Shown in pieces: positions 7,496 through 57,508 of a stretch of 64,000 bases of DNA (position 1 is its first letter; each line of letters opens with the position of its first letter). A model generated the notes under the pieces. That model worked only from the letters and a program-made list of their open reading frames with translations. It was not told the DNA's origin and did no database searches. Source of the stretch: a virus. The stretch covers positions 32,001 through 96,000 of IMG/VR virus record IMGVR_UViG_3300017973_000001, one strand, 5' to 3'. The position numbers and the translations under genes were made by a program.

Positions 7496-7563
7496 GTTGT
7501 TTTTGAACTTTTTAATGTAGGTTTAACCTTGATTTAATGATACTTTTGGTCCATACTGAAATA

Positions 7564-19029: not shown

Positions 19030-19108
19030 AATTCAGCAATTTCCCCTTTTCGTTCGACTATGTAGGTTAGACCTCACATAGTTCTTATACGAAAAAGAGA
19101 GACGTTAA

Positions 19109-22518: not shown

Positions 22519-23262
22519 ATGACGTTTAATATGAAATATAACATCAACAAAGATTACATAGCTAAGGGTACTATGAAACGCCCTGGAAATGGGATTAAAG
22601 TACAATTTATCGTGGCTCATGACACTGGGAACCCTGGTTCAACTGCTCAAAATAACGTAGATTACTATAAACGTGTTGCTAATGAGTCTTATGCTTCAGC
22701 TCATATTTTCGTAGATGATAAGCAAATTCTTGAGTGTATCCCGGCTTTAACTGGTCCTACAGAAAGGGCTTATCACGTAATCTATGATGTTACTAAAGAT
22801 AATGAGTTATTTGGTGTTGACGCAAATGATGGGGCGATTGGAGTAGAGTTTTGCTATGGAAATGGCATTAATTTTACTGAAGCTTACAAGAAGTATGTAT
22901 GGGTTATTGCTTACATCTGCTTTAAGTTTAACATTGACCCACGTAAGAAAATTACTGGCCATTTCATCTTGGACCCGGCTCGTAAAACAGACCCGGTAGG
23001 GGGGCTGAAATTTGGTGGAAAGACTTTCCCACAATTTTTAGCTGATGTAGTTACTGAGTACAATAACTGTATCATTCCGGATCAACAAGTAAAGCCAATA
23101 CCTCAACCAACTGGTGTAACTTATAAAATTCAAAAAGATGATACATTTTGGGGAATAGCTACACGTTTACATATGAATGTAAATGACTTAATGAAGTTAA
23201 ACCCAGGTGTTGATCCTAAAAAGTTATCAGAAGGTATGGAGATTATCATTGGAAAAAAGTAG
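22519..23262 (+). CDS. endolysin: N-acetylmuramoyl-L-alanine amidase (Amidase_2) plus LysM
   Basis: VAHDTGN, SAHIFVDD, AYH, IGVEFC, GH...KTDP; LysM YKIQKDDTFWGIA...LMKLNP. Confidence 0.93.
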   Translation: MTFNMKYNINKDYIAKGTMKRPGNGIKVQFIVAHDTGNPGSTAQNNVDYYKRVANESYASAHIFVDDKQILECIPALTGPTERAYHVIYDVTKDNELFGVDANDGAIGVEFCYGNGINFTEAYKKYVWVIAYICFKFNIDPRKKITGHFILDPARKTDPVGGLKFGGKTFPQFLADVVTEYNNCIIPDQQVKPIPQPTGVTYKIQKDDTFWGIATRLHMNVNDLMKLNPGVDPKKLSEGMEIIIGKK

Positions 23263-49587: not shown

Positions 49588-49675
49588 AAGTAGACATTAC
49601 CCTATAGGAAGTAGACATTACCCTATAGGAAGTAGACATTCTCTTATAAATATATTTATAGGAATATGTCTACTT
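49588..49675. repeat. 21-bp tandem repeats plus 46-bp imperfect palindrome
   Basis: AAGTAGACATTACCCTATAGG x2.5; central TATAAATATATTTATA. Confidence 0.85.
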
Positions 49676-53623: not shown

Positions 53624-53654
53624 GAAAATACCACCTTTTTAGTAAAATTAAGCG

Positions 53655-53991
53655 TTTTTAGGTGTTTTTGAGCATTTTTTAACGTTTTTTATGATATTTT
53701 CGGTGTTTTTTATCACTTTTGAGTAGTTTTTAAGTGTTTTTATGCTATTTTAAGCGTATTTTAGTACTTTTTGGGCCGTTTTAGGGTGTTTTTAGACGTT
53801 TTTGACACATTTTTAGGTCACTTTAAGCCATTTTGGACCTATTTTGACTCATTTTAATGCTAATTTCAGCTCTTTTCAGCCCATTTCAGCTCTTTTTTAG
53901 CAGTTTTTATTAAAAAATTGGCTATTTTTTGAATTAAATGAACGTTTTTAAGCCTTTTTAAGCAAAAAATACGGGTTTTTAGACCTTTTTT
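53655..53991. other. helically phased T-tract array (intrinsically curved DNA)
   Basis: 25 consecutive T3-T6 tracts, mean period about 10.4 bp. Confidence 0.9.
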
Positions 53992-54020
53992 CAGCTCGTA
54001 TTTGGCCTTATTATTCGTGT

Positions 54021-54296
54021 TTATAACATGCTAACTGTAGCTATAACCTGGGATGGCAAGTTATTTAGACTAGTTAACCCCATAATAAATGTAATACCTA
54101 GCTTGCTATTATGTACTAGTCTCATATTGTCATCATATGTTTTCAAATAGTAGTCTAGCTTTTCCTGGAAGTTTTCACGGGGATTGATAATTAGTTCCTC
54201 GTATTTTGCTACTCCTTCGACTGCGATCATTACATAACTGAAAGATTCATCCTCTATGATGACATTGAATGTTTGTTCAAACTCAGTTTTCTTCAT
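54021..54296 (-). CDS. hypothetical phage protein
   Basis: ELIINPRENFQEKLDYYLKTYDDNM; AAGGGGG RBS. Confidence 0.7.
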   Translation of the reverse strand: MKKTEFEQTFNVIIEDESFSYVMIAVEGVAKYEELIINPRENFQEKLDYYLKTYDDNMRLVHNSKLGITFIMGLTSLNNLPSQVIATVSML

Positions 54297-54317
54297 GTTG
54301 TTCCCCCTTTGTATATG

Positions 54318-54422
54318 AAAAAAGGTCCCTCAGCTTGGAAAGGGACCCCTTGACAGTGAAAATAAATGTAAAAACCAATGTATACTTCTAACGGAGAGCA
54401 AGAAATATATATTCTTTAGTCC
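54318..54422 (-). ncRNA. candidate sRNA or attenuated leader
   Basis: TTGATT-17-TATATT (54456-54428); terminator GGUCCCU/AGGGACC plus U6. Confidence 0.55.
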
Positions 54423-54550
54423 ATCTAAATATATCAATATAGTTTATCTAAATCAATAATCCAATAGTAACATTAAAATTTTATGAGCCTCAGTAGATTA
54501 ATAGAGTTTACACCTATACTAACTGTGATTAAACAATAGGAGGGATAGGT

Positions 54551-55288
54551 ATGAATTACAAAATTGTAAAAGACTCTCTTGATCTACGGGACAAAATCTA
54601 CACAAGTAGCAAATACAAAACAGTAAATGACGTACCGGCTCAGACAAATAACTCAGCTTTAATTGATTGGGTTTTTGACCAGGGGCATGAGGGATCGTGC
54701 ACTGCTAATACTTTTGCTAGTATGCGTATGTATTTGCTTAAAAAGAATGGTCAAACGGCACCAGTATTAAGCCGTGCTTATATCTACTGGCATGAACGTA
54801 AATATGAAGGAACTACTAACCAGGATTCCGGAGCTCTTTCAAGGGATGGAGTAAGAACGTTACTAGAATTTGGAGTATGTACAGATAATGCTATGCCGTA
54901 CAGTGACCGTTCATATGGGGTTGCTCCATCAACACAAGCTGAAGCTGAAGCTTTCAGATATAAAATCAACGCTTACTACCGTGTTCCGGACGTTACTACT
55001 TTGAAAATGGCTCTTGCTGATGGACTAGTAGTATCACTGGGAATGACAGTTTATAAATCGTTTGAGTACGGAACAGTAGGTGAGACCGGTATTTTTGAGA
55101 CACCTGGTTTATTTGAACAGAAATTAGGTGGCCATGAAGTACTGATTGTAGATTATAAAAAAGTTGGAAATTCATACGAGTACAAAGTGTTAAATAGTTG
55201 GGGAGAAAACTGGGGCCAAAGAGGTTATTTTTGGATTACTGAGACTCAGCTAAAGAAAGTAGCTATGGATTTTTGGACTGCTAACTAA
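54551..55288 (+). CDS. papain-like cysteine peptidase (C1 family)
   Basis: DQGHEGSCTAN, GGHEV, NSWGENWGQRGYFW. Confidence 0.92.
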   Translation: MNYKIVKDSLDLRDKIYTSSKYKTVNDVPAQTNNSALIDWVFDQGHEGSCTANTFASMRMYLLKKNGQTAPVLSRAYIYWHERKYEGTTNQDSGALSRDGVRTLLEFGVCTDNAMPYSDRSYGVAPSTQAEAEAFRYKINAYYRVPDVTTLKMALADGLVVSLGMTVYKSFEYGTVGETGIFETPGLFEQKLGGHEVLIVDYKKVGNSYEYKVLNSWGENWGQRGYFWITETQLKKVAMDFWTAN

Positions 55289-55291
55289 ACG

Positions 55292-55720
55292 AAAAAGAGC
55301 CCTCCGGGATTCGGTAGGGTTCTTTCTCTGTTAAATAAACTAATAGGAGTGCTACCCGTCAGTAGCACATCATCAAATATACCAGGTTTTACCAATATCA
55401 TCAATAACAAAACAAAAAGTACCCCATCCGACAAGGGTACTCATTGTTGACAAAAATTAAAATAAAAGGAACTTTTATAATTTACCAGTTATTGGGGATA
55501 AGAGCAAGAGAAAAAGGTACCAATTAAGGTACCAGTTCTCAAAGGAAATTTTAATTTACTAATCATGAAATAATATTAGAAAAAGGTAATATTAGTATAA
55601 TTTACACCGTTTAAAAAATCAAGAGAGGTACTGGACCTCTCCACCTTCTTGTATAGCACACTACTAGATTTTGTTTGGAGAAGGTATTTTTATCATTACC
55701 CTTATTAGCAATGCTTATAC
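55292..55720 (-). ncRNA. tandem array of four candidate sRNA genes
   Basis: four promoter/short RNA/terminator units head to tail; see findings. Confidence 0.7.
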
Positions 55721-55816
55721 TTGTCTACTCTATATGTGTACCGGGAGGTAACTCCCACCACCAGGAGGGAAGGTTATACCTTTCCTCTTTTAATTTTATA
55801 AAGAGGAGGACAAGAT

Positions 55817-56599
55817 ATGTCATTATTTAAAACGATTCAAGTATTTGATACGTCTGTATTAAGCCCTGGAACTGCAATTGATTATGAAACAAAAACAGTT
55901 AAGTTTAATGGCCTTATCACTCGTTCAGATAATTTTATCTTAGAGATTGATTACTATGATCCATCTGCCCTTAATACGGGTAGTCTAATGATTGCACTGG
56001 ATGATGTAGTTAAACAAAAAGTAGCAATTAATATTCTAGAAAATACTACACATACTGTTCCGGATACTACTCCACCGGATAATGTAACTGGTGTAACTGT
56101 ATCTCCTAACTACACTGCCGTTGTTTTAAGATGGACTAATCCAACTGGATTCAGTGACTTTAACGGTGTAAACATCTATCGAGACGGAACATTAGTTGTT
56201 AAAAACTTAGTTAACACAACGTTTACAGATACTTCTCTAAATGAAGGACAAACTTACACGTACATTATTAAATCAACTGACCTAGCTGATAATGAGTCAG
56301 ATGGTATTACGAAAGTTACTACTACACTTGATTCTGTACCTCCTAGTGATGTAGCTAACTTACGTGGTGGTTTAATTACAACCACAAGTATTGAATTATT
56401 ATATGACCTACCGACTGACGCTGATTTTGACCATTTAGTTATCCTACGTAACAATGTTCAGATCGCAAACAGTGTAAGAACTCCGGCTTTCACAGATAAT
56501 GGATTATCTACTGGCCAAGTTTATAACTACACTGTAATTGCCGTTGACCTAAGTGGAAATCAGACTGCCGGGGTTGATATTAGTTTATCTGCTTTATAA
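55817..56599 (+). CDS. protein with two fibronectin type III domains
   Basis: DTTPPDNVT...LRW.NP...YRDG...FTDTSL..G.TYTY.I...D.A.NES, repeated. Confidence 0.85.
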   Translation: MSLFKTIQVFDTSVLSPGTAIDYETKTVKFNGLITRSDNFILEIDYYDPSALNTGSLMIALDDVVKQKVAINILENTTHTVPDTTPPDNVTGVTVSPNYTAVVLRWTNPTGFSDFNGVNIYRDGTLVVKNLVNTTFTDTSLNEGQTYTYIIKSTDLADNESDGITKVTTTLDSVPPSDVANLRGGLITTTSIELLYDLPTDADFDHLVILRNNVQIANSVRTPAFTDNGLSTGQVYNYTVIAVDLSGNQTAGVDISLSAL

Positions 56600-56602
56600 T
56601 GC

Positions 56603-56738
56603 AAAAAAGGCGCACCCTCTATTAAAAGGGAACGCCTTTTTTGTGACTGTCTGCTTTAGATGTAAGGTGTGAACAAGGTGAAACCAACAAGAAGGTATGC
56701 CTTAGAATGGCATTTAAGGGCGCTTCGAACACCCTCAC
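56603..56738 (-). ncRNA. candidate sRNA with three ACCUU motifs
   Basis: phage-type promoter 56771-56745; two 5' hairpins; bidirectional terminator 56603-56642. Confidence 0.55.
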
Positions 56739-56926
56739 TATATTTATACGAATGGCTATAAGTAATGTTAACCTAATTATTTTTTAATTCGTATAAGAAC
56801 TATGTAGAGAATAATCCACTTTTAATGGTTTAACCTACGAAACTGGGAAGGAAATAATTTTTCGAGCTTCGCTAAGGTCAAAATATTTTAAAAAAGTTGG
56901 AAGTATTTAGAGAGGGTTTGGTGTGT

Positions 56927-57508
56927 ATGGCAGATTTTGGCTCAGCAAAAAAAGGGCGTATTGAGAGATTTAAACTAGAAGTTGACGCTATCAATCTACG
57001 AAAAGCCGGCTTGTCATTTCAAGCAATCGCTAACGAACTGAACAAGAACCCGGCAGTACCGGAGGATGAGCAGATTGATAAGCATGTGGTAATGAGATTC
57101 TTTGAAAAGATACCGGAAGTTCAACGTCAGCTTGTAAGAGAAGATAAAAAACGGTTAGTCCAGGTAGTAAATCAGAACATGGACATTATCAGTGAAATGA
57201 ATGAGTTGTTTGGTAAGTCTAAAATGCTACTGAACTACATGGAGGATAAGGCTTATAACGAGGGCAAGATGATAGACCCTTACCGTTTTAAAGCAGTCAG
57301 CTCCGAAATGAGGGAAATGCTGAAGCAGATGACTGACGTTCAGAAAGAGATTAGTGACTATGATAATATCCGTAAATTTATGGAAATCGTTATGGAAACA
57401 TTGAAGTCTGAAGCTCCGGAGTCTATTCCAACAATCGTACAGAAGCTACGTATGGCTCAAGGAACAAACTGGTTCGCTAACATGATCGGAGGTAAGGACA
57501 ATGAATGA
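56927..57508 (+). CDS. putative terminase small subunit
   Basis: N-terminal HTH (LRKAGLSFQAIANELN) and helical body upstream of TerL. Confidence 0.6.
   Translation: MADFGSAKKGRIERFKLEVDAINLRKAGLSFQAIANELNKNPAVPEDEQIDKHVVMRFFEKIPEVQRQLVREDKKRLVQVVNQNMDIISEMNELFGKSKMLLNYMEDKAYNEGKMIDPYRFKAVSSEMREMLKQMTDVQKEISDYDNIRKFMEIVMETLKSEAPESIPTIVQKLRMAQGTNWFANMIGGKDNE

Follow-up and report, generated by a model that had tools for sequence, protein, structure and literature searches.

What is written on the minus strand of a 528-bp gene-free spacer (55289-55816) that separates two plus-strand genes of a large phage, and is it a series of small RNA genes? A sequence-only reading of the window, by which we mean the whole stretch of 64,000 nucleotides analyzed here (it covers bases 32001-96000 of an IMG/VR phage record that is 109,430 bp long and carries direct terminal repeats), had described the spacer as a head-to-tail array of four separately promoted, ORF-less and non-repetitive RNA genes, and proposed that they form a modular cassette island for silencing host or phage mRNAs. 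All the hexamers, hairpins and coordinates quoted in that description are present in the sequence as given, and the question is thus what they amount to.

Genomic setting of the spacer

To judge from its sequence, this 109-kb virus is an uncultured phage of Bacillota and a distant relative of Brevibacillus phage Jenst; among the sequencing runs searched, its sequence occurs in one peat metagenome, the probable source, and in no RNA run. The large terminase shows 51% identity to its counterparts in Jenst and Bacillus phage EZ-2018a, 61-71% identity across 17 uncultured or proviral contigs and 64% identity to a copy carried by a Bacillota MAG. The genome has a G+C content of 35% and a coding fraction of 0.89. 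The spacer lies just 5' of the TerS-TK-TerL block, between the gene of a papain-like C1 peptidase and that of an FN3-domain protein, for which a search found no close homolog; the gene order on its 3' side is FN3 gene, TerS-like, thymidine kinase (TK), TerL and portal.

Terminators and predicted promoters on the minus strand

Four terminators are present in the spacer (table 1). T1, T2 and T3 combine the G+C-rich stem-loop and the U-tract of intrinsic terminators on the minus strand only, where the ten nucleotides that follow the stem contain 7-8 T vs 3-4 on the plus strand, and their orientation runs against both flanking genes. T4 has these features on both strands, its fold being of -14.5 kcal/mol on the plus vs -11.2 kcal/mol on the minus strand. 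The row of four terminators described earlier is consequently retained for the three that are minus-specific, whereas the fourth is bidirectional and also ends the C1 peptidase gene. A consensus scan of positions 54000-57500 returned seven terminator-like sites vs 1.8 ± 1.4 in shuffles, three of them being the minus-strand sites of the spacer. Under strict criteria the whole 109-kb genome has 23 terminators per strand, and the spacer contains its only same-strand trio within 250 bp; the chance of such a three-terminator cluster under random placement is borderline (P about 0.05), with a Poisson estimate of about 0.003 when T4 is counted. As minus-strand RNA, T3, T5, the terminator at 56640-56606 (T6) and the hairpin at the 5' end of unit 4 all gain 2-6 kcal/mol in stability over their plus-strand forms, since their G.U pairs correspond to A.C on that strand. 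This asymmetry, together with the orientation and density of the terminators, argues for a row of minus-strand units.

Promoters were evaluated with sigmaA rules (TTGACA-like box, spacer of 17 ± 1 nt, TATAAT-like box, optional TG extension), which were assumed from the Bacillota affinity of the phage and may not represent the consensus of its actual host. By these rules, the motif TTGnnn-N17-TAnnnT precedes units 2, 3 and 4, and the -35 boxes of P2 and P3 do abut the preceding terminator, as had been pointed out. P4, the spacer of which contains GGTAAAACC, is the best predicted promoter of the row and is found, together with P5 of the neighboring unit 5, among only 29 top-scoring sigmaA-like sites in the 219 kb of both genome strands, while the -35 box of P3 is weak (3/6 matches). 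The same motif is present 30-110 nt upstream of T2, T3, T4 and T5, namely four of the five minus-strand terminators considered, against a frequency of 0.032 for finding its -10 end at this distance upstream of a random genome position (binomial P about 5e-6); it does not occur on the plus strand between 54300 and 55900. Promoter placement is a stronger statistic than terminator clustering. P2 and P3 share TCTCTTG at the -35 and GTAAATTATA at the -10 region, and other shared patches of 10-13 nt, mostly between units 2 and 3, include AGAAAAAGGTA, which is present twice. We also considered TGGTAAATT as a phage-specific -10 word and rejected it, its remaining copies lying inside coding sequence.

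Unit 1 departs from this pattern. No sigmaA-like hexamers lie upstream of T1, and the sigmaF-type promoter previously ascribed to this unit corresponds to a pattern with two genome matches vs 0.23 expected that was fitted post hoc to these same sites. The consensus of sigmaF promoters is GYATA, 15 nt, GGnRAYAMTW, from which the box of unit 1 differs by one mismatch; its use would also require a sporulating host. We keep the notion of separately promoted units for units 2-4 and leave unit 1, which is without a credible promoter, with no assigned start.

Table 1. Features of the spacer and its surroundings, in window coordinates
Feature	Position	Strand	Details
91-aa gene with own SD, directly 3' of T5	54296-54021	-	phrog_3915 match, function unknown
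Candidate unit 5: P5 (54456-54428), body of about 70 nt, T5 (54350-54321)	54321-54456	-	P5 = TTGATT-17-TGa-TATATT
C1 peptidase gene, papain-like, 245 aa (left neighbor)	54551-55288	+	Pfam PF00112, E 6e-16
Unit 4, predicted RNA of about 85 nt: 5' hairpin, about 20 nt open (UCCUAUUAGUUUAUUUAAC), terminator	55285-55369	-	-32 kcal/mol, z -4.75
T4, bidirectional, common to C1 peptidase gene (+) and unit 4 (-)	55292-55322	both	T-rich tails on both sides
Unit 4, 5' stem-loop GUGCUACU-GACG-GGUAGCAC	55349-55368	-	-10.9 kcal/mol minus vs -8.9 plus
P4, TTGATG-17-TGg-TATATT	55376-55404	-	9/12 matches + TG; score 11.0
GGTWWDACC copy in P4 spacer	55385-55393	both	Word match
Unit 3, predicted RNA of about 65 nt: U-rich single-stranded 5' part, then T3	55408-55472	-	Fold z -3.6
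T3, 9-bp stem then UUUGUUUUGU	55417-55442	-	-12.7 kcal/mol minus vs -9.1 plus; two G.U pairs
P3, TTGCTC-17-TGg-TAAATT, extended -10, directly 3' of T2 tail	55479-55507	-	7/12 matches + TG
Unit 2, predicted RNA of about 81 nt: A/U-rich body, then T2	55507-55587	-	Fold z -3.2
T2, GGUACC-UUAAUU-GGUACC then UUUUUCUCUU	55516-55533	-	-9.0 kcal/mol; tail 8 T minus vs 3 plus
P2, TTGATT-17-TATACT	55594-55622	-	9/12 matches; -35 box begins at last T1 stem base
Unit 1, predicted RNA body of about 74 nt: 5' stem ACCUUCU/AGAAGGU abuts T1	55612-55685	-	-17.7 kcal/mol, z -1.4, not significant
T1, intrinsic, GGAGAGGU-CCAGU-ACCUCUCU then UGAUUUUUU	55622-55642	-	-10.4 kcal/mol; tail 7 T minus vs 4 plus
Unit 1, proposed sigmaF-type promoter GTATA-N15-GGTAATGATA (speculative)	55691-55720	-	Sequence present
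12-bp hairpin with T-rich tail, 14 nt before FN3 SD	55763-55789	+	Resembles terminator or attenuator
FN3-domain protein gene (right neighbor)	55817-56599	+	Domain match
Candidate unit 6: TTAACA-17-TATAAA, body of about 135 nt, terminator 56640-56606	about 56771-56605	-	Back to back with TerS gene

Candidate RNAs

The RNAs predicted for units 2-4 fold better than their own shuffles, and that of unit 1 does not; the terminators contribute much to these values, and besides them little structure is predicted for units 2 and 3. When the whole array is folded, the z values of the plus and minus strands are similar (-5.3 and -4.7) and do not tell the strands apart. Unit 4 appears to be the best sRNA candidate, combining a 5' protective stem-loop, an open stretch of 20 nt and a strong terminator. 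Protective 5' stem-loops in RNAs of Firmicutes are usually placed at the first transcribed base, and the hairpin of unit 4 begins 7-8 nt past the -10 box, which is the predicted first base of its transcript. The 3' end of this RNA is predicted to overlap that of the convergent C1 peptidase mRNA, and therefore a cis effect on the peptidase mRNA would be as likely as an action in trans.

In agreement with the ORF-less character attributed to the units, no SD-led ORF occurs on either strand of the spacer, and the frames of 25-49 aa that it does contain run past the terminators; the only one in unit 2 has 25 aa, is without SD and crosses the terminator. Small peptides were rejected as products, given that the ORFs of the spacer are without SD and all cross terminators, and so was a type I toxin, since the 26- and 49-aa ORFs have no SD and owe their hydrophobic runs to T-tracts. 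Remnants of tRNA genes were rejected as well, no tRNA gene being present in the window or the whole genome (ARAGORN / Rfam RF00005 cloverleaf criterion), and an Rfam scan of the array at gathering threshold and with E up to 10 returned nothing credible and no match below E=1. Only short two-copy patches, of 10-13 nt, and no tandem repeats are found in the region 55250-55850, which is thus non-repetitive as originally described and does not form a CRISPR-like or ToxI-like array.

Signals of the same kind continue on both sides of the spacer, six orphan terminators being present on the minus strand between 54300 and 56800. Candidate unit 5, to the left of the C1 peptidase gene, ends in a terminator that is of -16.1 kcal/mol on the minus vs -11.3 on the plus strand, while the body of candidate unit 6, beyond the FN3 gene, contains three ACCUU words and precedes a terminator of -20.5 kcal/mol on the minus vs -14.8 on the plus strand. 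Located between units 5 and 6, the plus-strand genes of the C1 peptidase and the FN3 protein look like insertions.

Seeds and targets

The sequence-only reading had assigned to all four RNAs CCU-containing seeds complementary to SD sequences, and to unit 4 a complementarity to the ribosome-binding site of the endolysin (22501); the gene that starts at 22519 does encode an endolysin. The first assignment does not exceed base composition, with 11 CCU on the minus strand of the array vs 9.6 in dinucleotide shuffles (P=0.31); ACCUU is weakly enriched (4 vs 1.2, P=0.024 uncorrected). SD-binding sRNAs of low-GC bacteria are marked by the motif UCCC in loops or single-stranded parts (PMC4132741), whereas the sequences and folds of the units have CCU only, UCCC being absent from their open parts. 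The second assignment is not supported either: TAATAGGAG occurs six times in the window vs 1.1 expected because it is a generic word that joins a stop codon to an SD, and by duplex energy with unit 4 the start of the endolysin gene comes only 39th among 150 phage start regions. Across these 150 start regions, pairing of the units is no better than that of their shuffled versions except for one match of unit 1, in which pairing is patchy and the longest exact run is of 7 nt. Anti-SD silencing is thus the least supported step of the original proposal and a very improbable one.

Comparison with related phages

The comparison of this interval across related phages, which had been recommended for detecting cassette gain and loss, confirms that the region 5' of TerS is variable but yields neither a homologous spacer nor a row of terminators. 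By blastn, the region 54500-56700 has no match among 50,697 phage records, and the spacer shares only chance words with the 17 related loci; compared with the complete genomes of five related phages and with a single Bacillota MAG, it has matches of at most 34 nt with E of at least 0.07. Scanning IMG/VR for the pattern of the unit-4 hairpin gave no match, and no variants of the spacer are found among the contigs of the probable source peat metagenome, which yielded the source contig itself, identical in sequence, and a peptidase contig that is unrelated. TerS-(TK)-TerL-portal alone is kept across the 17 relatives, and therefore the array lies in a variable region.

A homolog of the C1 peptidase with 71% identity is found on another peat or soil contig (locus L020, 2328-3074) among entirely different neighbors, and the spacer 3' of it is unrelated and has no minus-strand terminators. 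The peptidase gene, equipped with a terminator of its own, behaves like a mobile cassette of a single gene.

What the relatives do have 5' of TerS is tRNA genes. These were compared between the present genome and relatives L002, L003, L009, L010, L012, L015 and L016, as well as Jenst: minus-strand tRNA genes are located 5' of TerS in Jenst, L003, L010, L012 and L016, each being followed by a minus-strand terminator in L010, L012 and L016. There are six tRNA genes in Jenst, one or two in this position in several of the uncultured relatives, and none in the present phage, in its leftward zone or elsewhere. The presence of tRNA genes and terminators 5' of TerS in the relatives indicates that a leftward small-RNA zone at this place is a family trait. 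Rows of terminators comparable to that of the spacer are not found 5' of TerS in these relatives.

A recurrent regulatory word and other sequence elements

The palindromic word GGTWWDACC (often TAGGTWWWACCTA), a copy of which lies in the spacer of P4, has 30 matches in the window vs 7.1 ± 3.3 in shuffles, a fourfold excess. Its matches are mostly intergenic and mostly beside promoters, several being 11-13 nt before a TATAAT-like box (examples are at 7520, 8408, 17675, 19065, 21290, 49849, 51866, 53263, 55385, 55772, 56827 and 62360); further copies are found in the hairpin before the FN3 SD and before TerS. The word suggests that a phage regulator controls these sites, of which it is probably an operator or promoter element. 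An identical 17-mer, CATAGTTCTTATACGAA, is present at 19077-19093 (plus) and 56788-56804 (minus), with none expected; both copies are intergenic and downstream of a GGTWWDACC word, and the 17-mer may be a shared phage-type promoter or operator.

Three other elements are worth recording. The leader of the FN3 gene (55700-55830, plus strand) folds with z -3.8 into two hairpins enclosed in a long stem, in which the SD and start codon are paired with 55719-55735. At 53650-54020, flanked by two small minus-strand genes, about 370 bp consist of A-tracts (T-tracts on the plus strand) phased every 10-11 bp with varied spacers, for which Tandem Repeats Finder reports periods of 10, 11, 21 and 51; DNA of this kind would be strongly curved and might serve as an origin or a regulatory scaffold. 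Finally, two adjoining copies of TAATGTCTACTTCCTATAGGG, each of 21 bp and one of them differing at a single position, occupy 49600-49641 on the minus strand, with partial copies extending to about 49700; they lie within a gene-poor, C-rich stretch of 1.6 kb upstream of an early leftward operon and look like iterons.

Interpretation of the row

We put the chances at about even that the spacer consists of short non-coding units, each transcribed independently, which follow one another head to tail on the strand opposed to that of the flanking genes. According to this interpretation, host RNA polymerase of the sigmaA type would start at P2, P3 and P4 and transcribe 65-85 nt before stopping at the next intrinsic terminator, the T-rich tail of which abuts the -35 box of the following promoter; unit 1 would stop at a good terminator, its start being without assignment. 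Units 1-4, with the fifth (54456-54321) and the sixth (about 56771-56605), would form a minus-strand small-RNA zone occupying the position that minus-strand tRNA genes and their terminator have upstream of TerS in related phages. Besides this position, the interpretation is favored by the promoter motif preceding four of five minus-strand terminators and missing from the plus strand, by the ranking of P4 and P5 within the genome, by the hairpin of unit 4 at the predicted first base, by the absence of SD-led ORFs and by the genome-wide regulatory word within P4. It is weakened by the missing homolog of the spacer in the databases and relatives searched, by the promoters of unit 1 (none credible) and unit 3 (poor -35 box), by the scant structure of units 2 and 3, by the borderline clustering of the terminators and by seeds and targets that stay at chance level. 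On these grounds the row probably gives rise to discrete RNAs; a regulatory role for at least some of them is a tentative proposition, with the balance somewhat against it. The more ambitious version, namely an island of at least four unrelated, separately transcribed RNA genes (six with the neighbors) whose products target host messages in trans, either early in infection or in the course of a plasmid-like lysogeny, as a modular and swappable toolkit instead of a set of paralogs, we regard as unlikely.

The alternative that survives best, possible but on the unlikely side, retains the layout and dispenses with a function for the RNAs. In hyperplastic regions of T4-type phages, the PeSL (promoter-early stem-loop) cassettes associate a sigma70-like promoter with a stem-loop that acts as terminator (Arbiol et al. 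2010, PMC2839356), and the junctions T1|P2, T2|P3 and T3|P4 of the spacer resemble them as composites of promoter and terminator repeated in a row, within a variable region, that leave each unit transcriptionally insulated. Such junctions would both insulate and drive genes that can be swapped, and would offer sites for recombination; the bodies of 60 nt between them would be leftovers or not yet filled, and any RNAs functionless by-products. The conservation of nothing but TerS-(TK)-TerL-portal in the 17 relatives, the occurrence of the C1 peptidase gene elsewhere among other neighbors and the words shared by P2 and P3, with the two copies of AGAAAAAGGTA, are in keeping with this explanation. 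However, PeSLs are conserved repeats of roughly 100 bp that end in the SD and start codon of an ORFan and run in the same direction as the genes, whereas the present row has only 10-13-nt patches, no SD or ORF after any junction and a direction that opposes both neighbor genes, in a phage of a Gram-positive host that is not T4-type; moreover, the G.U asymmetry and the hairpin at the 5' end of unit 4 suggest that the RNA itself has been under selection. Of the earlier idea of a modular sRNA cassette island, the layout and variable setting are retained, which empty PeSL-like cassettes fit equally, whereas the silencing function is not supported.

Another explanation would see minus-strand transcription as a head-on barrier that keeps transcription of the peptidase gene from running on into the FN3 and packaging genes, or as antisense to a long plus-strand FN3 leader. 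The position of the spacer, preceded by a plus-strand gene that has its own terminator and followed by the beginning of the packaging block, would suit such a role, as would the structured leader of FN3 with its paired SD and the absence of a sigmaA-like plus-strand promoter for this gene in the spacer; but a single promoter would suffice, T4 already ends plus-strand transcription and a plus-strand transcript across the spacer is purely hypothetical, so that we find this explanation improbable. Lastly, that the row has no function, being chance hexamers beside decayed terminators of lost minus-strand genes, or else encodes small peptides or a single read-through transcript, would accord with promoter-like hexamers that are not enriched overall in this AT-rich DNA (10 vs 12.4 expected) and with the borderline terminator clustering, but is very improbable in view of the promoter-terminator pairing, of ORFs that are without SD and all cross terminators, and of the rarity with which phage genomes, here with 0.89 of their length coding, keep 528 bp of junk.

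Relation to known small RNA loci

Returning to the row of non-coding units, several known systems can be compared with it. In Listeria monocytogenes, lhrC1-4 lie head to tail in one spacer, each gene with its own terminator. The LhrC sRNAs of this low-GC Gram-positive bacterium exist in several copies (LhrC1-5), each with its own promoter, and consist of two hairpins joined by a single-stranded linker, which is the part that pairs with SD regions (PMC4132741). The LhrC RNAs are paralogs of almost identical sequence that have three UCCC motifs and demonstrated targets, whereas units 1-4 are mutually unrelated in sequence, have no UCCC in their open parts and no supported target. The tRNA gene cluster of phage T4 also gives rise to small stable RNAs, species 1 and 2, the role of which is unknown and which are processed from the tRNA precursor transcript. 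The present units resemble them as small non-coding RNAs in the tRNA-gene slot of a phage, but the T4 RNAs are not separately promoted and the present phage is without any tRNA gene. Type I toxin-antitoxin loci of Bacillus prophages (txpA/RatA, bsrG/SR4) produce antisense RNAs overlapping at their 3' ends. Unit 4 and the convergent C1 peptidase mRNA, sharing a bidirectional terminator, would likewise have complementary 3' ends; the partner is here a 245-aa peptidase that is not known to be toxic, not a small hydrophobic toxin.

The stand-alone sRNAs of phages and prophages are similarly orphan promoter-to-terminator units in phage intergenic gaps, although the known cases are single genes, mostly of enterobacterial prophages (PMC12197685). 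Searched by term, that review yields neither 'tandem' nor a cluster of sRNA genes.

If the row of units is what it appears to be, a large phage of Bacillota would carry a dense row of unrelated, separately promoted RNA genes, implying a richer RNA layer in the conflict between phage and host. If the units are instead empty regulatory cassettes, they would mark a recombination hotspot for the entry of new genes, a reading that would be useful for interpreting the variable regions of uncultured phages.
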